In this document: one piece after another, positions 1-63,644 of the stretch
Layout: every line of letters begins with the position of its first letter
Numbering within the stretch: position 1 is the stretch's first letter
Source of the DNA: a phage
Direction: 5' to 3' (one strand)
DNA length: 64,000 nucleotides
Sequence record: PZ386957.1
Notes under the pieces: model-generated
Seen by the model: the letters and a program-made list of their open reading frames with translations, nothing else
Told to the model about the DNA's origin: nothing
The model's database searches: none
Position numbers and translations under genes: made by a program

Positions 1-561
1 ACGGGTGGTTATCTTGCGGATAAAAACGAACAGATCTATAATACTGCAAGGAGCATGTATGCTGGCGCTGACCCGCGAACTAAAAACTATGTTTGGCACT
101 TAACCCCTCGTAGTATTGAAGATCTTCGAAATATACTGATTATCTACGAAACATTTTTAGAATTATCTTATGGTTCAAGTGGTATTTCCAGCACTGCAAA
201 GCAATTGAAAGCCGAAGTTGATGCATGGTATAAAAACACAATTCTTTCTAAGACGGTTCCTGATGGTGCTGATACATCAAACACGGTATTTGAAGGAATT
301 ACTGATTTTTTAACCAACGTAACCACTGTATCGAATCCGACAATTTGGATGATCTCTAATTTTGGTAAAAGATCTACCTATGAAGGAAGAAGCGATATTT
401 TCGGACCCGCTCAAATTACCAGTGTGAGACTTGATAAATCCCCTGATGGTAAATTTAATGGGTTGGCAATTTCTCCTAATTTACCTAGTACCTTTGTTCT
501 GGAAGTATCATTTAGAGAAATTCTTACTCTTTCCCGTGGTACTATATTTGGGAGTCAATAA
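1..561 (+). CDS. 48: baseplate tail-tube junction protein gp48 (5' partial; frame open from window start)
   Basis: Frame is open from position 1 with no stop; sits immediately upstream of a gp54-like ORF as in T4 (48-54-alt). Assignment is positional plus general similarity. Confidence 0.55.
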   Translation, partial: TGGYLADKNEQIYNTARSMYAGADPRTKNYVWHLTPRSIEDLRNILIIYETFLELSYGSSGISSTAKQLKAEVDAWYKNTILSKTVPDGADTSNTVFEGITDFLTNVTTVSNPTIWMISNFGKRSTYEGRSDIFGPAQITSVRLDKSPDGKFNGLAISPNLPSTFVLEVSFREILTLSRGTIFGSQ

Positions 562-1490
562 TGTTTGATTTAAATGATTTCAACGAACAAGCTGCAAACC
601 TTGATTTTCAACGTTCTAACCTATTTTCGGTGGCGTTTGCCACCGTTCCTAGTAGCAAGACGCAACAAGTTTTAGAAAATTTTGGTGGCGCTGTTTACGA
701 CCTTATTCCCGGAACTCTCAATGATGTTTTTGGTATAACTAGCGGTGAATATACCGATGCAGTAACTCATTTGGCTATACAAGGTGTGCGCAAAGTAACA
801 GGTTCCAGTGGCGTTAAAAAGTATTTGTTAGGTGCAATGTCCTCCCGTGTTGTTCAATCTCTATTGGGGCAATTCACTGTAGGTACATATGTCATGGATT
901 GGTTTAATATGGCATATCAAACAAGCGGATTGCTAGTCTATGCAGTGAAAGTGCCGGAAAATAGACTGAGCTATGAAATGGATCGTAACCATAACGCGCC
1001 AAACGTTCGTATTACCGGACGTGATTTCGACCCGCTTGTATTGAGCTTTAGAATGGACGCTAGCGCATCAAATTATAGAGCAATGCAGGATTGGGTTAAC
1101 TCGGTCGAAGATCCCGTTACAGGGCTTCGTGCGCTTCCGGTAGACGTTGAAGCAGATATTCAGGTCAACTTGCATAACCGTATGGGTGTACCTCACACTA
1201 TTATGATGTTTGGTGGTTGTATTCCTGTCGGTGTAAGTGCGCCTGAGTTGAGTTATGAAAATAACAACGAGATTACTACATTCGACGTTACCTTTGCTTA
1301 TCGTACAATGCAAGTTGGTGCGGTGGGTGAACAAGCCGCTAGAGAATGGGTTGAAGATAAGGCCATAAACCTAATTCAAAATACTATTGGTCAAGGTAAG
1401 GATAATTCATTGTCTTCTGCTGGTAGTGCATTATCTAGATTGCAAGGTGTTGGTGGTAGGGTAGTTAATACTATCACCAGATTATTTTAA
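561..1490 (+). CDS. 54: baseplate tail tube initiator gp54
   Basis: 309 aa ORF whose start overlaps the previous stop (ATGA); size and position match T4 gp54 (320 aa), followed by alt as in T4. Confidence 0.6.
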   Translation: MFDLNDFNEQAANLDFQRSNLFSVAFATVPSSKTQQVLENFGGAVYDLIPGTLNDVFGITSGEYTDAVTHLAIQGVRKVTGSSGVKKYLLGAMSSRVVQSLLGQFTVGTYVMDWFNMAYQTSGLLVYAVKVPENRLSYEMDRNHNAPNVRITGRDFDPLVLSFRMDASASNYRAMQDWVNSVEDPVTGLRALPVDVEADIQVNLHNRMGVPHTIMMFGGCIPVGVSAPELSYENNNEITTFDVTFAYRTMQVGAVGEQAAREWVEDKAINLIQNTIGQGKDNSLSSAGSALSRLQGVGGRVVNTITRLF

Positions 1491-2853: not shown

Positions 2854-2931
2854 TTTAAACCTCCCATATAACAGAAAACGGGGCTAGTATAAAACTAGTC
2901 CCCGTTTGAGTCAACCATTATTTCTTAAAAA

Positions 2932-4983: not shown

Positions 4984-5047
4984 TTTATATCCTCTAGTTG
5001 ATAACCTATAAACCTATATTTATGAAAAAGGGGCTTTACGCCCCATT

Positions 5048-5225
5048 AAAACATCTTAGAAATTAATTCTGCTTTGATTTCGCAGAGAACATCTAAAGAT
5101 TTCTCGTCACCTGCTTTTGCTGCTTCTGCTTGCATTTTTGAAATGGCTTCGAGGTCGGTGCAATTATAAGCCGCCTGAACTTTAGCGATTGCGATGATTG
5201 CAGATTCGATTGTTAAGTGTTTCAT
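5048..5225 (-). CDS. small hypothetical protein (~58 aa, below ORF-track cutoff)
   Basis: ATG at 5225 preceded by a consensus early promoter (TTGACA-17-TATAAT); hand-translated MKHLTIESAIIAIAKVQAAYN...; followed by a hairpin terminator near 5026-5046. Confidence 0.3.
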
Positions 5226-5257
5226 GTTTGATTCTCCTTTCGTTTCGGTATGTGTGC

Positions 5258-5286
5258 ATTATAGGGGATCGGTGATCCCCTGTCAA
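5258..5286 (-). promoter_or_regulatory. sigma70-type early promoter with palindromic spacer (TTGACA-GGGGATCaccGATCCCC-TATAAT)
   Basis: Perfect -35 and -10 hexamers separated by a 17-nt spacer that is an inverted repeat containing two GATC sites. Confidence 0.75.
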
Positions 5287-5293
5287 CAACTTT

Positions 5294-5848
5294 TTAGTTA
5301 TTTTTTAATTGCTCATCTTGCAATAATGCAATCACATGCTGGCGATGTTCTTCCGATTGAGGCACACCGAAAAAGTTTGTTTTGTAGAAATATTCTAATC
5401 GATCTTCTCGTGTGCTCTCTTCCATCATGATAGCTGGTAGACCAAGATTGCGAAAACGTCGCTTTTCTGCTGGCGTAAAATCGCTGTAATACAACATAGA
5501 ATCATCATTACCAGCAATGCTAAACTCATCCTTCATGAAAGAGAATATTGCGTTTAAACGCTGTTTACCGTCCACGATTTCGATCTCATAGCGAGAGCCA
5601 TCATCAATCTTAGCCATTGCGATAGCGCCTACCGGAAAATCATTAATAAGGTTTTCGACAAACATGCGTTTGTTTTCTGTATTCCATACCAACTCACGCT
5701 GATAATCTGGGTTCATGTTGATATAGCCATCTTCTAACCATGCCTCATAGACAGAGATGACAAAGTTTTTAGTATTGGTATAGTAACGGCGTTTAGGCGT
5801 TAAACGGTTCATATTATAGTCTCCTGAATGGATCATCACGTAGGTCAA
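5294..5848 (-). CDS. DUF262 / ParB-like NTPase-nuclease domain protein
   Basis: Motifs NPDYQRELVW ... FPVGAIAMAKIDDGSRYEIEIVDGKQRL match the ParB/Srx-fold DUF262 signature (DGQQR-type). Confidence 0.55.
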   Translation of the reverse strand: MTYVMIHSGDYNMNRLTPKRRYYTNTKNFVISVYEAWLEDGYINMNPDYQRELVWNTENKRMFVENLINDFPVGAIAMAKIDDGSRYEIEIVDGKQRLNAIFSFMKDEFSIAGNDDSMLYYSDFTPAEKRRFRNLGLPAIMMEESTREDRLEYFYKTNFFGVPQSEEHRQHVIALLQDEQLKNN

Positions 5849-6146
5849 TATCTTTTAAGAACTCATCCCATGAATGCCGGATATTGTTCTTAGTTCTCCA
5901 GATAAGAGCAGGAATCGAACGCTCTCCCATCTGGAAGTAAGGATCATATGATCCATATGCCCAATATGCTACTACAATTCCACAATCAGCGCAATAGTAT
6001 TCTATTTCACTTGCTGGCGACCAAAGACCATCAATATGATCGGTGATCTTGCTTTCGATGTTATGGCTATGACAATCAGGGCAACGGATGCAATGACCTT
6101 GTTTATCGTAATTTGACGTTAGCGAATACTTGAATAATCTCATCAT
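5814..6146 (-). CDS. small zinc-finger protein
   Basis: CIRCPDCHSH ... CADCG cysteine pairs; 110 aa. Confidence 0.4.
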   Translation of the reverse strand: MMRLFKYSLTSNYDKQGHCIRCPDCHSHNIESKITDHIDGLWSPASEIEYYCADCGIVVAYWAYGSYDPYFQMGERSIPALIWRTKNNIRHSWDEFLKDIDLRDDPFRRL

Positions 6147-6859
6147 AGATCCTTATTGGCTTCAAATACTGCCTTTGCAAATCCGCGCGGGGTAAGTGAC
6201 CGGATAGTCTTTGTTCTGGTTCCTTTCCCGCCTAGCTTAGAATGCTGTTTACTGTACCCTTTCTCAATTGGTATCGGTTTCTTTTCTGGCATTATAAAGC
6301 CTTGTCCAGTCCATAGGCAAGTCTTTTTAGGATACATGTCACGGGCGGCGATATAATCAGGGAAGGTCGGATGTATATCATCTTCCGGTAAATATCCGCC
6401 ATATTCCCACGGGTGGAACATATAATCGGGTTTACGCCACATGCTAGAGATAACGCTTACAGGATTCTCTATCATGTAGGGAACGCCCAACCATTCGCCC
6501 AAATAAGCCGATATTTTCGCTGTTTGTACATCTCTGTGTTGAATGAGTGGACCTAGAGTTTTTCTCTTACGTTCAAAGTGTGCAGCACCACTAACCGCTA
6601 AATTTGAACAGCTAGGAAATGCAAAAATCATATCCGGTTTGCCCCATTCAAGATCCATTGCTCTTTCTAGCCAATCCAAATCAATCCAGGTGTTTACATA
6701 GGTAATGTTTGGATGCTCAAATCGGGTATTATACTTTTTGTATGTACCGTGGTCGCCATCGTCAGCATTAAAGCAGATCACCTTATGACCTGCTTTAGCC
6801 CATTCTAGCCCCATTATCCCCGATCCGTCAAAGTTGCAGAATATTAATTTTTGTTTCAC
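6143..6859 (-). CDS. minimal C5-cytosine methyltransferase-like protein (no obvious target-recognition domain)
   Basis: Motif I-like FCNFDGSGIMG, motif IV-like FPSCSNLAVSG (P-S-C instead of P-C-Q), motif VI-like MIENPVSV, with canonical spacing; only 238 aa. Confidence 0.4.
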   Translation of the reverse strand: MKQKLIFCNFDGSGIMGLEWAKAGHKVICFNADDGDHGTYKKYNTRFEHPNITYVNTWIDLDWLERAMDLEWGKPDMIFAFPSCSNLAVSGAAHFERKRKTLGPLIQHRDVQTAKISAYLGEWLGVPYMIENPVSVISSMWRKPDYMFHPWEYGGYLPEDDIHPTFPDYIAARDMYPKKTCLWTGQGFIMPEKKPIPIEKGYSKQHSKLGGKGTRTKTIRSLTPRGFAKAVFEANKDL

Positions 6860-7107
6860 GCTGCCCCCATTGGTTTGATAGTAACAGAATCTAAAAGACC
6901 TTTGTTAGCCAGTTCGCGGCAAGTTTTCAGATCCGCAACTTCCCAGCCAGCCGCAATCAGATTATCGATGAGGCTGTTAGCAACGTATTCGCTCATGAAA
7001 GAGCACTGTTTGCCGATGGTGTAGCGTACACGCTGTAATTTAAGTTTACGGAAGCCTTTAACGTTCAGGTCTTTAGCGATTTTCTTTGCGGTTTCGATGT
7101 TAGCCAT
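6856..7107 (-). CDS. hypothetical early protein
   Basis: 83 aa ORF with SD and upstream early promoter cassette (palindromic spacer). Confidence 0.45.
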   Translation of the reverse strand: MANIETAKKIAKDLNVKGFRKLKLQRVRYTIGKQCSFMSEYVANSLIDNLIAAGWEVADLKTCRELANKGLLDSVTIKPMGAA

Positions 7108-7147
7108 TGTTTGATTCTCCTAAGTGGTATCTCGTCTTGATGTGTGT

Positions 7148-7176
7148 ATTATAGGGGATCTCCCGATCCCCGTCAA
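7148..7176 (-). promoter_or_regulatory. early promoter with palindromic spacer (TTGACG-GGGGATCgggaGATCCCC-TATAAT)
   Basis: Same architecture, upstream of ORF 6856..7107. Confidence 0.7.
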
Positions 7177-7190
7177 CAACTTTTTTAAAA

Positions 7191-7472
7191 TTATTCGTGA
7201 TTAGTTTCGATGTTATACATTTTGCACCAGTTCAGCCAATCACCCAGATCCTGATAGTTGATGCTTTTATCTGCTGCCATCGTTTTTGTCTTGATACCCA
7301 TATGTGCGTTATGAGTAACCATTTTTACAGTGAACTCAATTTTATCGCCTTTGGCCTTAACATCAACCAGTTTGGTCCACTGGCTACCAGCGCCGCGAAT
7401 GTTCATACCAACGATGTTTCCGATGTATGCTTCTTTGTTTTTCAGGATTTCGGTTGCTTTGATGAATTTCAT
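7191..7472 (-). CDS. hypothetical early protein
   Basis: 93 aa ORF preceded by promoter cassette. Confidence 0.45.
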   Translation of the reverse strand: MKFIKATEILKNKEAYIGNIVGMNIRGAGSQWTKLVDVKAKGDKIEFTVKMVTHNAHMGIKTKTMAADKSINYQDLGDWLNWCKMYNIETNHE

Positions 7473-7542
7473 TTTTGATTCTCCAGTTCGTTTCGGTATG
7501 GGTGTATTATGCTATGTTCTTACTTTGGTGTCAACAACTTTT

Positions 7543-7812
7543 TTAGATATTTTCAGAAATAAATTTTAAAACTTGACGTAAATGTTTCTCATCTTTGATA
7601 GTCGCCGGAAGTTCTTCTTTTACTTCCTGTGCAAGATAGATATTGCCGTTCCAAGTGAAAGATCCGTCTTCGTTTACGCGGTAGCTGAACATCCACTCGC
7701 AATCATTTTCGACTTCATAAACACACAGAAGGGTGTAATCATTAAAGTTATTGATTTCAAGGTCGAGGCCGTGACGTTTTGCAAAGTTGGTAGTGGTTTT
7801 AGTCAATGCCAT
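7543..7812 (-). CDS. hypothetical early protein
   Basis: 89 aa ORF preceded by promoter cassette. Confidence 0.45.
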   Translation of the reverse strand: MALTKTTTNFAKRHGLDLEINNFNDYTLLCVYEVENDCEWMFSYRVNEDGSFTWNGNIYLAQEVKEELPATIKDEKHLRQVLKFISENI

Positions 7813-7910
7813 TGTTTGATTCTCCTAAGTAGTATCTCGTTTCGATGGGTGTATTATGATATAGGCGTGATCTGGTGTCAACAACTTTTTTAAAATTTAG
7901 GCAATAAAAA

Positions 7911-7928
7911 GCCGACACTAAGGTCGGC
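7911..7928 (-). terminator. hairpin terminator GCCGACactaaGGTCGGC (repeated copy 1)
   Basis: Identical hairpin and flanks recur at 8411..8428; T-run follows on the - strand. Confidence 0.6.
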
Positions 7929-7933
7929 ACATT

Positions 7934-8251
7934 TTAAAAATTCTTGCTATATATGCAAGCCTCATAATCTAGAGGATGACCGCCAATCCTACCAGGCTTA
8001 ATATTCCAACCGCATCGATATTTGCTGACCATGCTAACCGTTTCGGTTCTTAGAGCATTTCTTTGCAAATCATACCCCCTAAATTCTTGTCTATAAGGAC
8101 AGTCCGCTTTGCAAGTTGGCGGTTCTACGTCATTTAGCGGGTCAGAAGCAGTTGGCTTTATTATCAATTCTTTGTTTGCAATAATCATAAGCACATCCCA
8201 TTGAAGGCAATTTAACATCTTCGCAATAAGTGTTGAATCCGTCAAATACAA
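7934..8251 (-). CDS. hypothetical protein (start uncertain; overlaps next ORF)
   Basis: 105 aa ORF overlapping 8142..8336 in another frame; several Cys residues. Confidence 0.3.
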   Translation of the reverse strand: MYLTDSTLIAKMLNCLQWDVLMIIANKELIIKPTASDPLNDVEPPTCKADCPYRQEFRGYDLQRNALRTETVSMVSKYRCGWNIKPGRIGGHPLDYEACIYSKNF

Positions 8252-8336
8252 TCACTTCGTATTTGACTCCATCGGCGATAGCTTTTACTTTATACCATCC
8301 ATGCTTGTATAAAATCTTCATCTTTATTTCCCTCAA
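8142..8336 (-). CDS. hypothetical small protein
   Basis: 64 aa; SD GAGGGA upstream of ATG and promoter cassette directly upstream. Confidence 0.4.
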   Translation of the reverse strand: MREIKMKILYKHGWYKVKAIADGVKYEVIVFDGFNTYCEDVKLPSMGCAYDYCKQRIDNKANCF

Positions 8337-8354
8337 TCTCGTTTCGATGGGTGT

Positions 8355-8383
8355 ATTATGCTATACACAGGATCTAGTGTCAA
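8355..8383 (-). promoter_or_regulatory. early promoter (TTGACA-17-CATAAT), representative of the non-palindromic cassette
   Basis: Conserved block gtgtattatgctatac...tgtcaacaacttttt recurs at more than 15 sites in the window. Confidence 0.65.
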
Positions 8384-8410
8384 CAACTTTTTAAAATTTT
8401 ATGCAATAAA

Positions 8411-8428
8411 AAGCCGACACTAAGGTCG
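8411..8428 (-). terminator. hairpin terminator GCCGACactaaGGTCGGC (repeated copy 2)
   Basis: Duplicate of 7911..7928 including the flanking aataaaaa tract. Confidence 0.6.
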
Positions 8429-8438
8429 GCTAATAAAA

Positions 8439-8747
8439 TCATTTAGACAAATAATCATTCTGTGCAATCCGGTCAGCATGTTCCGGCGTTACGTCAATCG
8501 CAATCACTTTAACGCGTGCTTTCTTGCGACCTGGGTTTTCTCGTAACCAGTGCTCATGACCGTGAACATTTTTATACTGCGATGCTTCTTCGAAGGTACG
8601 GATCGGACCTGGGTAATCAGCGTAAAGGATCTCTAGATCTTCGGTGATGTAAAAATATACATCGTAATTGCTGTTCTCTAGCTTAAGCAGAGACTTTCGG
8701 AACATTGGGAGATTTTCGCGGGTAAATTCAAAGATATTATCTTTCAT
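8439..8747 (-). CDS. H-x-H-W family small protein (paralog 1 of 6)
   Basis: ...HGHEHWL...VIAIDVTPEHADR; shares motif layout with five neighbouring ORFs. Confidence 0.5.
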   Translation of the reverse strand: MKDNIFEFTRENLPMFRKSLLKLENSNYDVYFYITEDLEILYADYPGPIRTFEEASQYKNVHGHEHWLRENPGRKKARVKVIAIDVTPEHADRIAQNDYLSK

Positions 8748-8797
8748 AGTATTATCCTCAATAGTTGGATGAAAAGGGGGCTTAACGCCCCCATATA

Positions 8798-9085
8798 TTA
8801 AAACAGCCCTTCCTGTACACCGTAGTAGAGTTCGTCACTGATAATTTCATTAATGCGACGGTGTGCATATTCCTGATTTGCGAAGTTGTCAGCAAGTTCT
8901 ACTTTAGTTTCGCCGTCATGAGTCCATTTAGTGATAACTTTACCATCTGCAAATTTGAAGTTGAACTCTTTAGCTACTGCATCGCGTACCAGACGTGCAA
9001 ACTTGTTGTTACGGATTGCATTATCGGTTTCGTGTGCAGCGTGAGCAAATTTGTTAACTTTCAGCGTGATAGTGATGTATGCCAT
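8798..9085 (-). CDS. hypothetical early protein
   Basis: 95 aa ORF with SD, preceded by promoter cassette. Confidence 0.45.
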   Translation of the reverse strand: MAYITITLKVNKFAHAAHETDNAIRNNKFARLVRDAVAKEFNFKFADGKVITKWTHDGETKVELADNFANQEYAHRRINEIISDELYYGVQEGLF

Positions 9086-9166
9086 AATTTGATTCTCCTA
9101 GTTAGAAAGTGTATCTCGTTTCGATGGGTGTATTATGCTATACACCCGATCTTATGTCAACACTTT

Positions 9167-9460
9167 TTATAAAATAATTTTTTGATATTTTTCTATGATG
9201 TTTGTGTAGGTCACGTCAACCGCTAGCACCGTTGCTTCGAATCCACCGTTTAACCAATGGCTATGATCATGGTCGTGAAAGAAACCTAGACCAGTACGAA
9301 GACCTTCTTTATATTCTGCGCGTACATTCAGTTTGTCGTCGATAAACAGATAAAACCATGAATTTTTACTAGGATTGATGATACAACCTTTCAGATTAGG
9401 GAGAATATCACGACTAAGAATAAACTTATCACCTACTTTGAACATAATATTAGTCCTCAC
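9167..9460 (-). CDS. H-x-H-W family small protein (paralog 2)
   Basis: ...HDHDHSHWL...VLAVDVT... Confidence 0.5.
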   Translation of the reverse strand: MRTNIMFKVGDKFILSRDILPNLKGCIINPSKNSWFYLFIDDKLNVRAEYKEGLRTGLGFFHDHDHSHWLNGGFEATVLAVDVTYTNIIEKYQKIIL

Positions 9461-9770
9461 TTATAAGGTCAAACCAATTGTTTTTCGCATAATGCTTAAT
9501 GCGTGCTTGATCTGCTTCCGATGGTGATAGATTCCATGCAACCACTACAACTTCTGACGCATCGTCATCCGTTTCTGATACCCAATGATTGTGATTCATA
9601 CAGTTATTTGCTATCGAGTGAGCAAATGATTTCATCACTGGAGACGTATAATCATAGTAACGGATTTTCAGATTTTCATCAACGTACAAATAGATCGTAT
9701 AAGGTTTATATTCAGTAACCAGTAACAGACAGTTACGCAATTCTGGGAAAATATTTTTAGTTAATTTCAT
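9450..9770 (-). CDS. H-x-H-W family small protein (paralog 3, divergent)
   Basis: ...NHNHWVSE...VVVVAWNLSPSEADQ... Confidence 0.45.
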   Translation of the reverse strand: MKLTKNIFPELRNCLLLVTEYKPYTIYLYVDENLKIRYYDYTSPVMKSFAHSIANNCMNHNHWVSETDDDASEVVVVAWNLSPSEADQARIKHYAKNNWFDLISED

Positions 9771-9984
9771 ATTCTAGTTCTCCGTAATACACGGTAATCC
9801 ATTTTTCTTCATACTTTGTATCTTTCCAACACACAATCCCGTTTACTGTGCAATCTTTGGAATTGACGAATGATTCATATTGTTCTGCATCTTCCATCAT
9901 TGCATGAGCGGTCTTTTCATCGAATATATCGCAGATCGCTTTATATGCTCGATAATCTTTAAATTTGCTCATAATTAAGACCAC
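9757..9984 (-). CDS. hypothetical small protein, tandem duplicate A
   Basis: MSKFKDYRAYKAICDIF...; near-identical N-terminus to the next ORF. Confidence 0.45.
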   Translation of the reverse strand: MVLIMSKFKDYRAYKAICDIFDEKTAHAMMEDAEQYESFVNSKDCTVNGIVCWKDTKYEEKWITVYYGELEYEIN

Positions 9985-10184
9985 TCAAGAGTTTTTGAAA
10001 ACACATCTATCCATTGTTGAGTATATGCGGTTTCTTTCCATGATACAATACCAGTCGAATAATGGTTTTTGTTTCCAGAAAAGGACGGGCATTTTGAGGC
10101 ATCTTCCATCATCTTTTCGGCGAACTCTGGTTCGTATACTCGCAAGATCTGTTGATATGCTTTATAATCTTTAAATTTGCTCAT
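9975..10184 (-). CDS. hypothetical small protein, tandem duplicate B
   Basis: MSKFKDYKAYQQILRVY...MMEDA...; paralog of 9757..9984. Confidence 0.45.
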   Translation of the reverse strand: MSKFKDYKAYQQILRVYEPEFAEKMMEDASKCPSFSGNKNHYSTGIVSWKETAYTQQWIDVFSKTLEWS

Positions 10185-10449
10185 AATTGTTAACTACCTT
10201 ATCAGCTTCTTTTATTGTTTTTACATCAACTGCGATAATCCGTAAAGGTTCGTCGAAGGTCCACCAATGATCGTGAATATCGGCTTGTGATTTATCACCA
10301 AAGGAATCACGAATATCATTTTTACATTTATAGCCAATGTGACCTTCATAGTCAACATAAAGGTAATTATCGAAAATCGGCGTTTTTAAGATCATACCGA
10401 AAAATCTTTCTTTGTGTGTCTTATCCAGTGTTGCAGTAATTCTCATCAT
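10171..10449 (-). CDS. H-x-H-W family small protein (paralog 4)
   Basis: ...DIHDHWW...IIAVDVKTIKEADK... Confidence 0.5.
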   Translation of the reverse strand: MMRITATLDKTHKERFFGMILKTPIFDNYLYVDYEGHIGYKCKNDIRDSFGDKSQADIHDHWWTFDEPLRIIAVDVKTIKEADKVVNNYEQI

Positions 10450-10705
10450 AATATATTCCTCTTAGAAAGGGATGGTCATTTCTTGAGCTTGTACATTCTC
10501 GTTAGGATTAAACTTCATCCAACCGATATTGTCTACCAGCATATGCACATTTTTATCATATCCTACGTGAGTAGTCAACACTAAATGTGTTTTACCTTCA
10601 ACGATGATTTCCATGTACTTCTGAACTTCGATAGCTTTCATTTTGATTCTCCGTTTGTTGTCTTGATGGGAGTATCTTACTACTCCCTTTAATCATTGTC
10701 AACTA

Positions 10706-10873
10706 TTATTTGTTAATTTCCGGTGCGTTGCTCGGATAGTAACCTTCTTTAACACCCAGATATTTCGCAACCATTCCGGTGATCTTCTGTGCTACTACGA
10801 TATCGAATTTCAGGTAGTCTTCACCGTGGTTTGCTACAATGTATGCTTCGCATTCTGCTTTAGTCTGGAACAT
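10706..10873 (-). CDS. hypothetical small protein (start trimmed to internal Met)
   Basis: The ORF-track N-terminus (MHTYQRDIGES) is a translation of the conserved promoter/leader; the likely start is MFQTK after the SD. Confidence 0.35.
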   Translation of the reverse strand: MFQTKAECEAYIVANHGEDYLKFDIVVAQKITGMVAKYLGVKEGYYPSNAPEINK

Positions 10874-10907
10874 TTTTGATTCTCCTATATCTCGTTGGTA
10901 TGTGTGC

Positions 10908-10936
10908 ATTATAGGGGATCACCGATCCCCTGTCAA
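10908..10936 (-). promoter_or_regulatory. early promoter with palindromic spacer (TTGACA-GGGGATCggtGATCCCC-TATAAT)
   Basis: Upstream of ORF 10706..10873. Confidence 0.7.
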
Positions 10937-10943
10937 CAACTTT

Positions 10944-11252
10944 TTATTCTTCATCTTCAACTTTATCTTTATATGCGTATTTCATAAATTTGTCTGCTAC
11001 TTTGTCGGCCTTTTCTGGTTTGACGTCTGACGCCAGGACAATGGCTAGATCGGTTTCGTCGTTCCCACCATACCAGTGATTATGTGTGTCGTTTTCATCA
11101 ATATAGAATTTATCACCTTCGTAAGTTCGAGCAAATACATCTAAATTCCCATCGATGTAAAAGATCCAATCTTCGTAAAGAATAACCGTATTAGCAAGGT
11201 TCTTGTTGCCTTCAACGAAAGGTTCGGTTACAAACAAATTGGTACGTTCCAT
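10944..11252 (-). CDS. H-x-H-W family small protein (paralog 5)
   Basis: ...NDTHNHWYGG...AIVLASDVKPEKADK... Confidence 0.5.
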   Translation of the reverse strand: MERTNLFVTEPFVEGNKNLANTVILYEDWIFYIDGNLDVFARTYEGDKFYIDENDTHNHWYGGNDETDLAIVLASDVKPEKADKVADKFMKYAYKDKVEDEE

Positions 11253-11308
11253 AATATTATCCTCAAATTATGGGAGAGTATTACCCTCCCAATGATTGTT
11301 ATATTACA

Positions 11309-11629
11309 TTACACAAAATGGCGTGTCAATGCTTCTTTTGCTGTTCCGCTAAGACTTTCGATCTCGCCTGGCATAACATCAACTGCCAGAACTTCTACAA
11401 CATCCTCGGACCATAACCAGTGAGTATGACCTTTGTAGAACTTGATAACCAGACTACCTTCCTCGTCCCATTTAACGCTATCGCTAGCCCACCACACATC
11501 ACCGTCGATAAAGTTGATGTAAAGTACGCTACGCCACATAGAATTAGTTACTTTTAGGACCGCGCCTTTCATCTCTTCCACGGTGTGGTCTTCCATTTTG
11601 AAGACCTCGCCTACCTGAACTTTTGCCAT
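11309..11629 (-). CDS. H-x-H-W family small protein (paralog 6)
   Basis: ...KGHTHWLWSED...VLAVDVMPGE... Confidence 0.5.
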   Translation of the reverse strand: MAKVQVGEVFKMEDHTVEEMKGAVLKVTNSMWRSVLYINFIDGDVWWASDSVKWDEEGSLVIKFYKGHTHWLWSEDVVEVLAVDVMPGEIESLSGTAKEALTRHFV

Positions 11630-11646
11630 TTAGTCACCTCTCTTTA

Positions 11647-11826
11647 TTACATAACAATCACGCCAGCCGTTGAAAGTTGATGTTTCAGTTGAGCATTTTC
11701 TGCTACCGTCAAATCAATGATTTCTTGTGACGCTGCAATCATATAACCATTGGTGATATTGTTTTGCATCAGTTCAATGGTTTCTTCGTTGTAGCGGATT
11801 TTAGCGATGATTTCGTTGAAGTTCAT
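11647..11826 (-). CDS. hypothetical small protein (start trimmed to internal Met)
   Basis: The ORF-track N-terminus (HTYRNELGES) is promoter-leader read-through; the likely start is MNFNEI after SD AGGAGAA. Confidence 0.35.
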   Translation of the reverse strand: MNFNEIIAKIRYNEETIELMQNNITNGYMIAASQEIIDLTVAENAQLKHQLSTAGVIVM

Positions 11827-11860
11827 AATTGATTCTCCTAGTTCGTTTCGGTATGTGTGT

Positions 11861-11889
11861 AGTATAGGGGATCGGTGATCCCCTGTCAA
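11861..11889 (-). promoter_or_regulatory. early promoter with palindromic spacer (TTGACA-GGGGATCaccGATCCCC-TATACT)
   Basis: Upstream of ORF 11647..11826. Confidence 0.7.
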
Positions 11890-11902
11890 CAACTTTTTTG
11901 AA

Positions 11903-12379
11903 TTATTTTTCTTGATGCTCGCGCTCATACTTTTCGAAATAAAATTCTACTGGCTGGTCGTGGATTGACAGTAAGCCAAAGCGTTTAGCCGCGCGTAATC
12001 CCATGTTACGTTGAATGTACTTCTGGAAGTTCTCGCGTATACACTTACGCCAGTATTCTAAGCCCATACAGCTTTTATAAAGATTGCATTGCACACACGA
12101 CGGATTCATGTTATCAAGTATATCATGTTCCGGTTTATGCATTCCTACAACCTTATACTTCCACGATCCATCATCATTACGGGAAATTCGTCCATTTTCA
12201 TCATAGACTACTTTTGAGCGTCGCAATACTGGTTTGATGTGGTCTGCGTGCCAGCGATCCCCTAGTTCCTCGCCACAATAGGCACAACGTCCACCGTATT
12301 TCATTTTCAGGATCTGGCGTTGCTCTTTCTTTGACAATTTTTTAGGTTTAGGGGCTTTCGCCCCTTCATTATCACACAT
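11903..12379 (-). CDS. HNH endonuclease-like zinc-binding protein
   Basis: CAYCGEEL...HADHIKP...CVQCNLYK, a classical HNH beta-beta-alpha-metal motif; overlaps the ligase stop. Confidence 0.6.
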   Translation of the reverse strand: MCDNEGAKAPKPKKLSKKEQRQILKMKYGGRCAYCGEELGDRWHADHIKPVLRRSKVVYDENGRISRNDDGSWKYKVVGMHKPEHDILDNMNPSCVQCNLYKSCMGLEYWRKCIRENFQKYIQRNMGLRAAKRFGLLSIHDQPVEFYFEKYEREHQEK

Positions 12380-29346: not shown

Positions 29347-29393
29347 AATGTAATCCTCACTTTGTTTCGATGTATGCATTATACAATACTATG

Positions 29394-30830
29394 TTACTTT
29401 GTCAACTCTTTTTCAAAAGATTTTACGATATACATGATGGTGCTCAATTCGGACGGTGCTACTGTCTCTGTGTAGCCATCCGGCATATCTTCTTTTGAGA
29501 TATAGGAAGTTTTACCTTTCATCGCTTCCTTGATTTTGTTCTCTAAGTCTAAGATCTTTTGTCCGTCTTGTAAAGTCAATTCATAAAAGATCTCGTGGTC
29601 GAACTTAGAAACGCGAGATTGTTGTCTCATCCTTTTGACCGCATCTTTATTTGTAATTCCAAATTTAACACCAACAAAAGAATTTTTGTATATTAATTTT
29701 TGTACATATAAACACCCACTTATAACAGTAGAATAACCAGATTTTGCGCAATTTGGACACCTGTGCCCATGAGAGACAAACTTATTATATGTGCTTTGAT
29801 ATAAGTGGTTATTTGGACACATGAATTCGATTTTCGTCTTCATCACCCCAATATATTTTCCACCAACAAACCTCAAAAATTTATGTTCTTTTGCAACAGA
29901 TTTTATTTCATCAACTACTGCTTCTTCTGTTTTTAAAGTCACCCCTTGACAAATCGCACATTTACTTCCTTTGATTAAAGAAGAAAATGACACAATATAA
30001 TCATGACCTTTTTCACATCTCATATTAAGTTTTGTTGTTACACCTTTATATTTTCCGCCAACAAAACCCAAAAAAGTATAAGACCCTTTTTTCTTGATGA
30101 TTTCTTTTATCGCTTCATTTTCGTTTCGACGAATTCCACCATAGCAAAACTCGCAGCGACATTTTTTGATGACGTTGGATACTTTTCTGTTATAGATGTG
30201 ACCTTCTTTACACATTAAAGATACTAATAAATCGGATGTAACCTTATCTTTATTGTTTTCTACACACAATACTGTATCATTCGTCGAAGTTGCCAATCGA
30301 TTTAATAATTCTTTTTCTTGTATTCTTTTTTCCTTACCGATTTTATTGTAGAAGCATTTAGCACATTTACGTCCACTTATATATGAAATATATGACGTTT
30401 CATATATATGTCCTCGGTCACACATAACACGAAGTTTCGTTTTTGTAGATCCTATATATTTTCCACCAACAAATTCAATAAATTTATAGTCGGTTCTTTT
30501 ATCTATGTTATTTCTAGCTTTATGTTCACTAATAGGATTCCTGTTTGAATTCGCGCATCGCAAGCATCTTTTTCCTTGAGATAAAGATGTTATTGTCGTT
30601 TCGTATAAGTGTCCATTTGAGCACGTTAATGAAATTTTAGTTTTACTACCCTTCCAATCATCAATAAACCCGTTAAACGTATAATTGTTATCTTCGCACA
30701 TTTTAATGATCATTTGTTCATATTCTTTCGGTGATTTAGCCAGCCCATGCAGCTTTTTTACTTGTGCGTCTTTATAAAAATAAGTTTTCATCATTTTATC
30801 CTCCGTTGTTTCGATGTGTGTATTATACAT
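29394..30830 (-). CDS. five tandem Cys4 zinc-ribbon repeats plus C-terminal T5orf172/GIY-YIG-like domain protein
   Basis: Five repeats of ~FxGGKYxGxxTK...CxxGHxY...GxxCxxC, then GCLYVQKL...VGVKFGITNKDAVKR...DGYTETV. Confidence 0.5.
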   Translation of the reverse strand: MYNTHIETTEDKMMKTYFYKDAQVKKLHGLAKSPKEYEQMIIKMCEDNNYTFNGFIDDWKGSKTKISLTCSNGHLYETTITSLSQGKRCLRCANSNRNPISEHKARNNIDKRTDYKFIEFVGGKYIGSTKTKLRVMCDRGHIYETSYISYISGRKCAKCFYNKIGKEKRIQEKELLNRLATSTNDTVLCVENNKDKVTSDLLVSLMCKEGHIYNRKVSNVIKKCRCEFCYGGIRRNENEAIKEIIKKKGSYTFLGFVGGKYKGVTTKLNMRCEKGHDYIVSFSSLIKGSKCAICQGVTLKTEEAVVDEIKSVAKEHKFLRFVGGKYIGVMKTKIEFMCPNNHLYQSTYNKFVSHGHRCPNCAKSGYSTVISGCLYVQKLIYKNSFVGVKFGITNKDAVKRMRQQSRVSKFDHEIFYELTLQDGQKILDLENKIKEAMKGKTSYISKEDMPDGYTETVAPSELSTIMYIVKSFEKELTK

Positions 30831-30881
30831 TACCGTATCAGCATGTCAACACTTTTTTATAAATTTTTAGGCAATAAAAAA

Positions 30882-47961: not shown

Positions 47962-48031
47962 AATATATTCCTCAGTGTTTTGTCTTGATGGGAGTATCTT
48001 ACTACTCCCTTAATCCGGTGTCAACTACTTT

Positions 48032-48250
48032 TTAAATTTCTTCTACAGTAAAGTCTTCAATGTTGTTGTGCTCGGAGAACGTTGCCAGACCAGCATCCCA
48101 CGCATCATCCTCAGAGAAGAATACACCATAACGTTCATATCCTTTAGCGCCTTCAAATTTAACCATTAATTTGTGAGTATGTTTCATTTTGATTCTCCTT
48201 CGTTGTCTTGATGAGTTCATTGTAGGGGATCGGCGATCCCCTGTCAACAA
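48032..48250 (-). CDS. hypothetical small protein
   Basis: 72 aa ORF with promoter cassette upstream. Confidence 0.35.
   Translation of the reverse strand: MLTGDRRSPTMNSSRQRRRIKMKHTHKLMVKFEGAKGYERYGVFFSEDDAWDAGLATFSEHNNIEDFTVEEI
48219..48247 (-). promoter_or_regulatory. early promoter with palindromic spacer (TTGACA-GGGGATCgccGATCCCC-TACAAT)
   Basis: Upstream of ORF 48032..48250. Confidence 0.7.
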
Positions 48251-48257
48251 CTATTTT

Positions 48258-48470
48258 TTAATTTTTACCCGCTAGTGCATTAATACGCATTTTCTGAATA
48301 GCCATGATCTGGCTTACTGCTTCTTCTTTACGTTCTTGTGTGATAACGTGACCAGATTCCGCAAACTCCCCCGCAACATCTTCTACAATCTCGCGAACTT
48401 GAGAACGTCCAAAGATGCGGTTTCCTTCGTAGCTCATAAACTCGGTCACTACTTGCTCAATAGATTTCAT
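48258..48470 (-). CDS. hypothetical small protein
   Basis: 70 aa ORF with promoter (palindromic spacer) upstream. Confidence 0.4.
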   Translation of the reverse strand: MKSIEQVVTEFMSYEGNRIFGRSQVREIVEDVAGEFAESGHVITQERKEEAVSQIMAIQKMRINALAGKN

Positions 48471-48529
48471 GATGATTCTCCTTTCGTTTGGTATGGGAGT
48501 ATCTTACTACCGACGACCTTTGGCGTCAA

Positions 48530-48718
48530 CTAATTTTTATGGAATTTTAAATTATTTTCGACCTTCATCCATTCCGCGTATTCTTGCGCGGCTACTTTCG
48601 GATTTAGTCCGTCTTCGTACATTGCATCAAGTAATTCTTCGTCGGTGGGCTTATACCCTAGATAAGCCGCAACCTGATTTTTCCAAATCTTATACCAGTT
48701 CATATTATCACCAATCAA
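48530..48718 (-). CDS. hypothetical small protein
   Basis: 62 aa ORF. Confidence 0.35.
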   Translation of the reverse strand: MIGDNMNWYKIWKNQVAAYLGYKPTDEELLDAMYEDGLNPKVAAQEYAEWMKVENNLKFHKN

Positions 48719-48980: not shown

Positions 48981-49094
48981 CTTTGATTCTCCTAGTTCGT
49001 TTCGGTATGTGTGTATTATGCAATGTTGGATTCTGGAAGTCAACAACTTTTTTCAAATAAAAAAGCCGACCACAAGGGTCGGCTCAATAATCAG

Positions 49095-55849: not shown

Positions 55850-55924
55850 TTTGATTCTCCTACTTGGTATCTCGTTTCGATGGGGACATTATGATATATC
55901 CCCGATCCAGTGTCAACAACTTTT

Positions 55925-56305
55925 TTAATCTTTTTTCAGTGCATCCATTACTCGCTCTGCGATCAGTTCTCTTAAGCACTGATAACCATGATATTTGATT
56001 GCAATGTCACGCAGATCATTAACCAGTTCCCGTACTTCATGGTCTTTCAAATCGTCTCTGTATTTCGATTTAACCGTGTCTTTAGGTGGATTGCGGATAA
56101 CCTGAAAACCTTGTTCTGCAATCACTGCGGCTTCTCGTTGGCGTTCATGCTGTACGGTGTTTTTGATCAAATCAGCTTCCATGAACTTTAATACATTAGC
56201 CATCATATTACCTTTCTTACTCATTGTTAAATCCTCATAAAATAAAAGGGAGACTCTCATTATAGAGAATCTCCCTTGTATGTCAAGTGTTATGATTGCA
56301 TCCAA
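55925..56305 (-). CDS. hypothetical protein
   Basis: 126 aa ORF. Confidence 0.4.
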   Translation of the reverse strand: MDAIITLDIQGRFSIMRVSLLFYEDLTMSKKGNMMANVLKFMEADLIKNTVQHERQREAAVIAEQGFQVIRNPPKDTVKSKYRDDLKDHEVRELVNDLRDIAIKYHGYQCLRELIAERVMDALKKD

Positions 56306-63012: not shown

Positions 63013-63073
63013 AATTGATTCTCCTTAGTTGGTATGTGTGTATTATTGTCTATCTGGTTTGTGTTGTCAACAC

Positions 63074-63622
63074 TTAAATTAAAGAAAATTTGTAAATTTC
63101 TATCAGGTCGCCGTTGCACGCGTAAACTTCCTCGATCTCATCTAAGATCATGGTCGTTCCGATCTTGTAAATGCACTCTCGCTCATCCGCTAACATCGCA
63201 TACAGAGACAAACGGGTAGTCGGGTTATCATATTCTTTCGACACCACGCGATCAATAGCATGTTCGTAATAATTCATGCAAGGCTTAGTTGGTTTTATTG
63301 CAATAACCTTCCCGGTTGCATAAACATCTGTTGCAAAGTCTTCTGCTGTTGATTGTAGTGGCGTAAAGCTCATAGGACGCTCTACAACGAAAGAATCACC
63401 CACAATTAAGGTATCCAGCTTACGACCTTCTCTTTTGCTCACACCGCGATACAGGGCTTCGTGGTGCACTAATCTTTCTGTCTTCTCAATAAGTGAATTA
63501 AGGATGTTCATGTCGATGTTATCCTTAGAGTTCATCACTTCATCAATAACATTAAGTTCTTCCGGTGTAAATTGCATAATAAAAAGCCTCCAATCTTTCG
63601 ACTGGAGGCATGATAAAACCAT
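63074..63622 (-). CDS. putative ADP-ribosyltransferase (ModA/ModB-like, positional)
   Basis: 182 aa; ...ALYRGV..., ...PLQSTA... are ART-like; lies after dda where T4 has modA/modB. Confidence 0.4.
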   Translation of the reverse strand: MVLSCLQSKDWRLFIMQFTPEELNVIDEVMNSKDNIDMNILNSLIEKTERLVHHEALYRGVSKREGRKLDTLIVGDSFVVERPMSFTPLQSTAEDFATDVYATGKVIAIKPTKPCMNYYEHAIDRVVSKEYDNPTTRLSLYAMLADERECIYKIGTTMILDEIEEVYACNGDLIEIYKFSLI

Positions 63623-63644
63623 TATAGAGTAGTGTCAACTAATT

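Follow-up and report, generated by a model that had tools for sequence, protein, structure and literature searches.

Repeated promoter and stem-loop cassettes with palindromic spacers in a T4-type phage and their likeness to the PeSLs of RB49

Promoter-early stem-loops (PeSLs) were defined by comparing the phages RB49 and phi1, with ~50 of these repeats per genome (Arbiol et al. 2010, PMC2839356). They lie mostly in hyperplastic regions upstream of ORFans, and their stable stem-loop, in which a polyC tract typically comes after a polyG tract, is found within or next to the promoter; a GGGG...CCCC stem was noted, and the placing of the stem-loop between the -35 box and the -10 box was listed among the commonest of five positional subclasses (PMC2839356). 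Promoter and terminator activity in vivo, as well as mini-circles, were shown for the PeSLs of RB49 and phi1. The PeSL206/205 promoter gave ~13,000 Miller units in the sole wild-type clone, most clones having gained promoter-down mutations, and the stem-loop of PeSL211/210 cut lacZ about as much as rrnB T1 (PMC2839356). Crossovers have been mapped to the PeSL loop in the literature. In the present study, 64,000 nucleotides of phage DNA (sequence record PZ386957.1; this whole stretch is called the window below) were analyzed, in which a sequence-only reading had pointed out mobile-looking early promoter cassettes, a subset of them with a palindromic 17-nt spacer separating the -35 box from the -10 box.

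Repeat family and its match to the PeSLs of RB49

The repeats of the window are most probably PeSLs, that is, the repeated regulatory cassettes of RB49-like T4-type coliphages (Krischvirus), working by the mechanism proposed below; the probability of this reading is put at about 85%. Positions 5000-12000 were 90-99% identical to 59 records of RB49-like coliphages (Krischvirus, Straboviridae), and by its nucleotide sequence the window is a Krischvirus, an RB49-like T4-type phage. It is collinear with RB49 from ~109.5 kb, across the record end, to ~9.8 kb, and its 5-12 kb part is collinear with RB49 open reading frames (ORFs) 185-212, from alt to the DNA ligase gene 30, which is the hyperplastic region. 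The resemblance to PeSL modules claimed in the sequence-only reading is therefore borne out: the genus and the genomic region are those of the original definition.

A hidden Markov model built from 13 copies was run with nhmmer over the whole window, and matches with E<=1 were taken as family members. Twenty-one members were obtained, all of them on the coding (-) strand, together with four background matches at E>5, in agreement with the claim that a ~60-bp block occurs more than 20 times on that strand. Three sites matched the full consensus TTGACA-17 nt-YATAAT-ACACCCATCGAAACGAG exactly, and one more did so with 3 mismatches (0 expected by chance), and the upstream part AAAAGTTGTTGACA, when <=2 mismatches were allowed, gave 18 matches against 1.2 expected. 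In most copies the promoter TTGACA-17-(T/C)ATAAT is preceded by AAAAAGTTG, as befits a PeSL promoter, and among the sequences listed a Shine-Dalgarno-like GGAG or GAGG follows ~20-45 nt past the -10 box, and then ATG. Nine copies stand in the 7-kb alt-gene 30 region, and the remainder among small ORFs near nrd, rIIA and modB. That the block flanks nearly every small ORF was an overstatement, since nine family copies face ~21 - strand ORFs in 5-12 kb. The sites that had been listed are family members apart from 31921 and 63633, which are sigma-70-like, went undetected by nhmmer and do not belong to the family.

From the -35 box onward, the copy whose -35 hexamer starts at 10936 (copies are named below by this position) is identical to RB49 PeSL206/205 (TTGACA-GGGGATCGGTGATCCCC-TATAAT), and copy 11889 is identical to RB49 PeSL210/209. 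Copy 10936 shares its promoter core, through PeSL206/205, with a tested strong promoter. In the RefSeq record of phage GEC-3S, the orthologous element is annotated as a promoter with -35 and -10 signals. When 50,697 phage records were searched, the 65-nt element was found in the same 59 records only, at 5-8 places in each; pattern scans of IMG/VR returned only chance matches with a loose pattern and a few patchy Krischvirus fragments with a strict one. The element, including the subclass with a palindromic spacer, is already known, having been described and partly tested experimentally in the same genus.

The family copies, each with the start of its -35 hexamer, are the following.

5238..5297 (-): PeSL whose spacer holds the stem-loop, TTGACA-GGGGATCACCGATCCCC-TATAAT, -35 at 5286, upstream of the ORF at 5046-5225; palindrome 5264-5280 with a 3-nt centre, 8-bp hairpin, centroid -12.8 kcal/mol
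7127..7191 (-): chimeric PeSL, TTGACG-GGGATCGGGAGATCCCC-TATAAT, -35 at 7176; palindrome 7154-7171 with a 4-nt loop
7486..7547 (-): PeSL-family promoter without internal stem, spacer CCAAAGTAAGAACATAG, -35 at 7534; minimum free energy (MFE) -2 kcal/mol, z 0.17
7833..7928 (-): 95-nt cassette of an intrinsic terminator, GCCGACCTTAGTGTCGGC+TTTTT (7911-7928), and then a promoter, -35 at 7881; no strong internal stem
8336..8431 (-): second terminator and promoter cassette, terminator 8412-8431, -35 at 8383
9111..9174 (-): PeSL with a stem spanning the -10 box, GGGTGTAT-AGCATA-ATACACCC, -35 at 9160
10655..10703 (-): divergent PeSL, -10 TAAGAT, stem GGGAGTA-GTAAGA-TACTCCC across the -10 box, -35 (weak) at 10702
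10887..10946 (-): PeSL whose spacer GGGGATCGGTGATCCCC holds the stem-loop, -35 at 10936; palindrome 10914-10930 with a 3-nt centre
11841..11903 (-): PeSL whose spacer GGGGATCACCGATCCCC holds the stem-loop, -10 TATACT, -35 at 11889; palindrome 11867-11883 with a 3-nt centre
19723..19778 (-): PeSL of the subfamily AAAGTAGTTGACA, stem GGGGGTA-GTAATA-TACCCCC across the -10 box, -35 at 19767
20003..20058 (-): PeSL of the same subfamily as 19723-19778, -35 at 20048
20281..20341 (-): PeSL-family promoter whose spacer holds one GATC, without a strong stem, -35 at 20327
23087..23138 (-): PeSL with the GATC-free palindromic spacer GCGGGGA-GAAA-TCCCCGC (23106-23123), -35 at 23128; -16.5 kcal/mol, z -4.6
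29362..29409 (-): divergent PeSL-family promoter, spacer of 16 nt, -35 at 29405
30803..30863 (-): divergent PeSL-family promoter, spacer of 16 nt, -35 at 30849
47979..48036 (-): PeSL whose -10 box is spanned by the stem GGGAGTA-GTAAGA-TACTCCC, -35 at 48024
48200..48261 (-): PeSL whose spacer GGGGATCGCCGATCCCC holds the stem-loop, -10 TACAAT, -35 at 48247; palindrome 48225-48241 with a 3-nt centre
48488..48538 (-): weak and degenerate copy of the PeSL family, -35 (weak) at 48527; nhmmer E=1.0
48995..49057 (-): PeSL-family promoter (TTGACT) without internal stem, -35 at 49043
55867..55928 (-): PeSL with the stem GGGGATAT-ATCATA-ATGTCCCC across the -10 box, one T·G wobble, -35 at 55916
63022..63083 (-): PeSL-family promoter (-10 AATAAT) without internal stem, -35 at 63070

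Stem-loops, proposed mechanism and gene shuffling

Five spacers of the form GGGGATC-N3/4-GATCCCC, four with a 3-nt and one with a 4-nt centre, were found exactly as had been described, and none is expected by chance. These twin-GATC copies make up a sequence subfamily with a common downstream TATAAT-(G/A)CACACATACC. A sixth palindromic spacer, the GATC-free one of copy 23128, had been overlooked. All twin-GATC copies have an 8-bp stem, because the base that ends the -35 hexamer is paired with the T that opens the -10 box, and in copy 7176 the palindrome takes in the final base of the hexamer (TTGACG). For the twin-GATC and 23128 hairpins, the MFEs of 51-nt segments were -13.8 to -16.5 kcal/mol, with z of -2.4 to -4.6. 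The stem lies in the spacer in six copies and across the -10 box in at least seven, with MFEs of -12 to -16.5 kcal/mol in the copies folded; the ACACCC... block past the -10 box of other copies is the 3' arm of the latter subclass, as in copy 9160. Rfam and tRNA searches gave no matches.

Copies 7881 and 8383 have a weak internal stem, and a separate canonical terminator stands just upstream of each; the terminator and promoter repeat measures 95 nt, with 91% identity between its two copies. The repeated hairpin terminators noticed near 7911 and 8411 are thus real (7911-7928 and 8412-8431). They had, however, been taken for the stem-loop of the PeSL, which is the palindromic spacer itself, as in the published subclass.

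Promoter and hairpin composites non-homologous to the family were also found. At 2868-2914 (-) and 56236-56286 (-), a long stem loops out the -10 box and a U-run comes next, so that a consensus promoter and a canonical terminator overlap, and at 63585-63638 (-) and 11262-11329 (-) the hairpin lies past the -10 box; these composites match other positional PeSL subclasses. A hairpin followed by a U-tract was found at the terminators 7911-7928 and 8412-8431 and in the composites 2914 and 56286. In RB49, the spacer of PeSL211/210 is GGGGAT-CACGT-ATCCCC, the sole strong hairpin in that intergenic region; the published terminator test would therefore have hit the spacer palindrome.

In the proposed mechanism, each cassette would come after the stop codon that ends one small early gene and ahead of the Shine-Dalgarno sequence and ATG of the next, and would consist of an A-rich upstream element, a near-consensus sigma-70 promoter and, usually, a G-run/C-run stem-loop. 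As double-stranded DNA it would serve as a strong early promoter, used by the unmodified host RNA polymerase early in infection. In the read-through RNA from the upstream gene, the same sequence would fold into a GC-rich hairpin that attenuates or terminates transcription, and each ORFan cassette would therefore be transcriptionally insulated. Because ~60-100 bp are common to tens of direct-repeat copies, homologous recombination of the phage would delete, insert and swap the flanked ORFans, with crossovers often in or next to the stem-loop. We infer that the spacer hairpin is selected for terminating or attenuating transcription; the weak-stem copies 7881 and 8383 with their upstream terminators, together with the composites 2914 and 56286 with their U-run, fit such an insulating role.

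Compared with RB49, five segments are absent from the window: ORF185, ORF189.1, ORF191+192, ORF207 and ORF210+211. The ORF191+192 and ORF210+211 indels end in PeSLs, the missing ORFs 210 and 211 belonging upstream of copy 11889. Copy 7176 is chimeric, its promoter core and spacer being those of RB49 PeSL192/191 and its 3' part that of PeSL191/190. The same type of chimera stands ahead of ORF185 in G37-3 and JK32, where ORF186 is missing, and one gene can have PeSLs of different classes ahead of it, depending on the phage. What had been called mobile-looking is the published PeSL-mediated shuffling, namely homologous recombination between direct repeats, with no transposable element. A recombination hotspot, one of the roles suggested for the palindrome in the sequence-only reading, is supported by the indel breakpoints, by the chimeric copy 7176 and by the published crossovers in the loop. 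As a separate observation, the breakpoints of the ORF185, ORF189.1 and ORF207 gaps (window 5045, 6843-6858 and 11250-11271) were not placed in family PeSLs; that of ORF185 adjoins a terminator at 5030-5044.

Variation of stem, loop and GATC sites across Krischvirus genomes

The comparative set consisted of the window and 19 other Krischvirus genomes, in which 219 family copies, all in sense orientation, were grouped by the downstream gene. Changes per column were counted within alignable orthologous groups. The allele changes over columns were as follows.

Outer G/C run: 0/38
GATC columns of palindromic spacers: 5/36
Loop: 31/28

These counts show constraint on the stem but not on the loop. 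A single site carried stems that differed by phage: GGGGATC-N3-GATCCCC, GGGGATC-GGGA-GATCCCC and GGGGAT-CACGT-ATCCCC were observed, and further stems at the same orthologous site were GGGGAG-GTTAAA-CTCCCC, GGGGAG-GATAA-CTCCCC, GGGAG..CTCCC and a G·T-wobble stem (GGGGGTC..GATCCCC). Since orthologous sites swap in GATC-free or G·T-wobble stems, it seems that pairing is selected, and not Dam sites or a fixed operator sequence. The stem across the -10 box was 93% paired over 15 distinct sequences and included two compensated pairs, GGGTGTAT/ATACACCC versus GGGGATAT/ATATCCCC. On the sense strand, the non-Watson-Crick pairs of core stems comprised 5-6 G·T contexts versus one A·C and one T·C. This excess of G·T leans towards a hairpin in the sense strand (RNA), the events being few and not decisive. 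Apparent C·A pairs outside the core stem were artefacts of automatic stem extension.

The change from GATC to GGTC (A to G), possibly a mutational bias at Dam sites, was also seen to recur in several independent contexts: in GGGGGTC stems at three sites, in TAAGGTC and in ACCTGGTC. Within stems, in RB49 and other orthologous PeSLs, it yields G·T wobbles.

Several points weigh against the reading of the repeats as PeSLs with a terminating or attenuating hairpin. The tail of the spacer hairpin is UAUAAU and not the U-tract of an intrinsic terminator, and a simple terminator scan therefore calls none of the spacer palindromes. Copies 7534, 49043 and 63070 have neither a stem nor an upstream terminator, which means that a stem is not required. 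The covariation could in large part be recombinational swapping of whole stem alleles rather than independent compensation. The published terminator test, moreover, rests on a single element, PeSL211/210 (PMC2839356).

The idea that the dyad is an operator, bound by a dimeric protein of phage or host that acts as an early-promoter repressor or as a PeSL-targeting recombination protein, is improbable on the variation just described. It would account for a perfect dyad exactly between the -35 box and the -10 box, where a bound dimer would block RNA polymerase, and for the invariant outer GGGG/CCCC (0/38 column changes). In RB49, neither a motA ortholog nor middle promoters were found, AsiA orthologs being reported just for the other phages of the study concerned. 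Arbiol et al. themselves speculated on a DNA-binding protein that recognises the GGGG...CCCC stem as a target in recombination (PMC2839356). The dyad and its position are fixed within the twin-GATC subset; the half-site sequence and spacing, however, vary at orthologous sites, as the inner sequence differs and the loop ranges from 3 to 6 nt, which alters the spacing of the half-sites, and G·T wobbles retain the hairpin and break the dyad symmetry of the duplex. Furthermore, the stem lies over or after the -10 box in other family members, and more than half of the copies have no stem in the spacer. When 10 ORFs of the region were searched against Pfam, only GmrSD_N, HNH and a weak zinc ribbon were obtained, most ORFs giving no domain, with no recognisable sequence-specific DNA-binding domain, and there is therefore no candidate regulator among them. 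The operator for a dimeric regulator proposed in the sequence-only reading is not supported, as orthologous sites carry GATC-free stems of different sequence or G·T wobbles.

Even less probable is that the palindrome has no selected function and is a passenger in a single repeat variant that duplication and gene conversion have spread successfully. The twin-GATC copies do form one sequence subfamily, and spacer alleles do move between sites. A passenger would not be expected to keep its stem invariant with the loop free (0/38 and 5/36 versus 31/28), and the stems give way to other stems, not to random sequence. The non-homologous promoter and hairpin composites in the same genome, together with the published terminator effect, also speak for a selected hairpin.

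That the two GATC sites make these promoters methylation-sensitive, for example active when fully methylated and SeqA-sequestered or altered when hemimethylated, is likewise very unlikely. GATC is dense at these places: the 21 spacers hold 15 of them (42 per kb versus 5 per kb in the whole window), and 43/64 palindromic spacers of 12 genomes carry two. RB49 encodes a Dam orthologue (outside this window) and has unmodified cytosines, so the sites could be methylated; neither PeSL paper mentions GATC, Dam or palindromes, and the only published PeSL assay was made in dam+ DH5alpha. The copies are related by descent, however, and the enrichment is therefore not a set of independent observations; over the whole window GATC is neither avoided nor enriched (323 sites, observed/expected 0.98). 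Among the same 64 palindromic spacers, 16 have no GATC and 5 have one, orthologous sites included, and GATC is lost at orthologous sites while the stem stays. Its columns vary more than the G/C run (5/36 versus 0/38), and in non-palindromic spacers the changes per column were 4/12 for GATC versus 25/44 for the flanks (p=0.22).

The position of the sites points the same way. Promoters of the classic Dam-regulated kind have the methylated base inside a hexamer or in the binding site of a regulator, and a spacing of 7-8 bp places both GATC on different helix faces. Here GATC lies in the spacer, outside the -35 and -10 hexamers, and at orthologous sites it is lost or replaced. Among the non-family sigma-70-like sites of the window, ~5/~35 had a GATC versus ~2.5 expected by a hand count, which gives no signal. 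A methylation-sensitive switch, as had been suggested, is not supported: orthologous sites carry GATC-free or wobble stems, and the GATC columns are less conserved than the outer G/C run. Most simply, GATC would be part of the commonest stem allele and is not demonstrably selected.

A candidate GATC-specific selection had appeared with 12 genomes as a ~6-fold conservation relative to other spacer columns, with a hint that GATC at spacer positions 4-7 was kept in non-palindromic copies too; it was gone with 20 genomes and separate counts for palindromic and non-palindromic copies, where the GATC effect outside stems was not significant (p=0.22), and it was therefore dropped.

The loops of the twin-GATC spacers vary in a particular manner. 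Across the 20 genomes, the 3-nt loops were ACC (19), GGT (18), ATC (7), GCC (2), GGC (1), ACA (1) and TGT (1), and six of these seven alleles fall into reverse-complement pairs. At the site upstream of the MFQTKAE gene, identical flanks enclose ACC, GGT, ACA (SFHK24) or TGT (Whisky). With both loop orientations between identical flanks, either the palindrome was inverted in place more than once or inverted alleles were exchanged. None of the 23 copies of the 4-nt loop GGGA was flipped. Template switching at a hairpin (quasi-palindrome mutagenesis) would give such loop flips, and flipping between close relatives hints that the hairpin forms in DNA in vivo. A stronger version of this idea is that the spacer palindromes are actively processed, extruded DNA hairpins or cruciforms, with loop flipping as the footprint; a structure- or sequence-specific phage protein would target them as preferred crossover sites for ORFan shuffling, possibly under modulation by Dam methylation of the stem GATC, and could double as an early-promoter shut-off in a T4-type lineage without MotA and apparently without AsiA. 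This reading is unlikely.

Surrounding genes, meaning and known systems

The trio of early genes at 5294-6859 in the hyperplastic region begins at 5294-5830 (-) with a protein of ~178 aa that has a GmrSD_N (DUF262) domain and no recognisable nuclease half. The middle gene, 5814-6146 (-), encodes a small zinc-ribbon protein, and 6143-6859 (-) is a 238-aa ORF labelled DNA (C-5 cytosine) methyltransferase in several records, yet with no Pfam match. The ORFs 9757-9984 and 9975-10184 (-) are tandem paralogues, both starting MSKFKDY..., with a 90-nt 5' stretch that is 73% identical, which indicates a local gene duplication within the hyperplastic region. Window positions 1-1370 (baseplate/tail-tube region) are ~79% identical to RB49, with neighbouring segments at 92-96%, and form a locally divergent structural segment. 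Over the whole window GGCC is strongly depleted (31 observed versus 68 expected, ratio 0.46), and AGCT (0.66) and GTAC (0.73) are low too; these deficits may reflect restriction-site avoidance in a phage with unmodified cytosines.

The finding is the rediscovery of a published element, and its value lies mainly in annotation: in most of the Krischvirus records checked, the promoters and stem-loops are unannotated, GEC-3S being the sole exception among those inspected. The cassettes account for the early expression of ORFans and for the way in which genes are gained and lost among related therapeutic coliphages. Two small points are new, namely that the commonest stem allele carries two Dam sites, on which selection seems not to act, and that the palindrome loop is flipped in some phages relative to close relatives. 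Should a dedicated protein or a methylation effect be found, it would bear on the shut-off of early promoters in RB49-type phages, which are without MotA and apparently without AsiA, as well as on the targeting of modular shuffling.

The closest known systems are the PeSLs of RB49 and phi1, with which the repeats share the genus, the alt-gene 30 region, the order of A-rich region, -35 and -10 boxes, GGGG..CCCC stem, Shine-Dalgarno sequence and ATG, and the link to ORFan indels. There is no essential difference; peculiar to this phage are its set of ORFan deletions and the chimeric copy 7176. Neither the GATC sites in the stem nor the flipping of the loop is commented on in the PeSL papers, and both features are seen here. 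The PeSL-like motifs of other T4-like myoviruses are composites of promoter and terminator and follow the same concept of an early promoter with a stem-loop, placed beside variable genes of hyperplastic regions (Comeau, Arbiol & Krisch 2014; PMC4122927). In T-even phages, the counterparts have T4-type early promoters and weaker AT-rich stems (2010 Discussion, PMC2839356); they are analogues and not homologues, as the sequence family described here is confined to Krischvirus records.

Intrinsic (Rho-independent) terminators have in common with the spacer hairpin a GC-rich intergenic hairpin of 7-8 bp, and the published reporter effect was comparable to that of rrnB T1. They differ in that the spacer hairpin sits within a functional promoter and has UAUAAU instead of a U-tract. 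Dam-sensitive promoters resemble these cassettes in having GATC inside the promoter, with Dam methylase available from host and phage. The IS10 pIN promoter is an example of a promoter sensitive to Dam methylation; in the present case, by contrast, GATC lies in the spacer and is dispensable at orthologous sites. Morons and integron cassettes, a comparison drawn by Arbiol et al., are alike in that single genes carry their own promoter and terminator. Here, by contrast, neither an integrase nor an attC-type site takes part, and mobility comes from general homologous recombination between the repeated cassettes.

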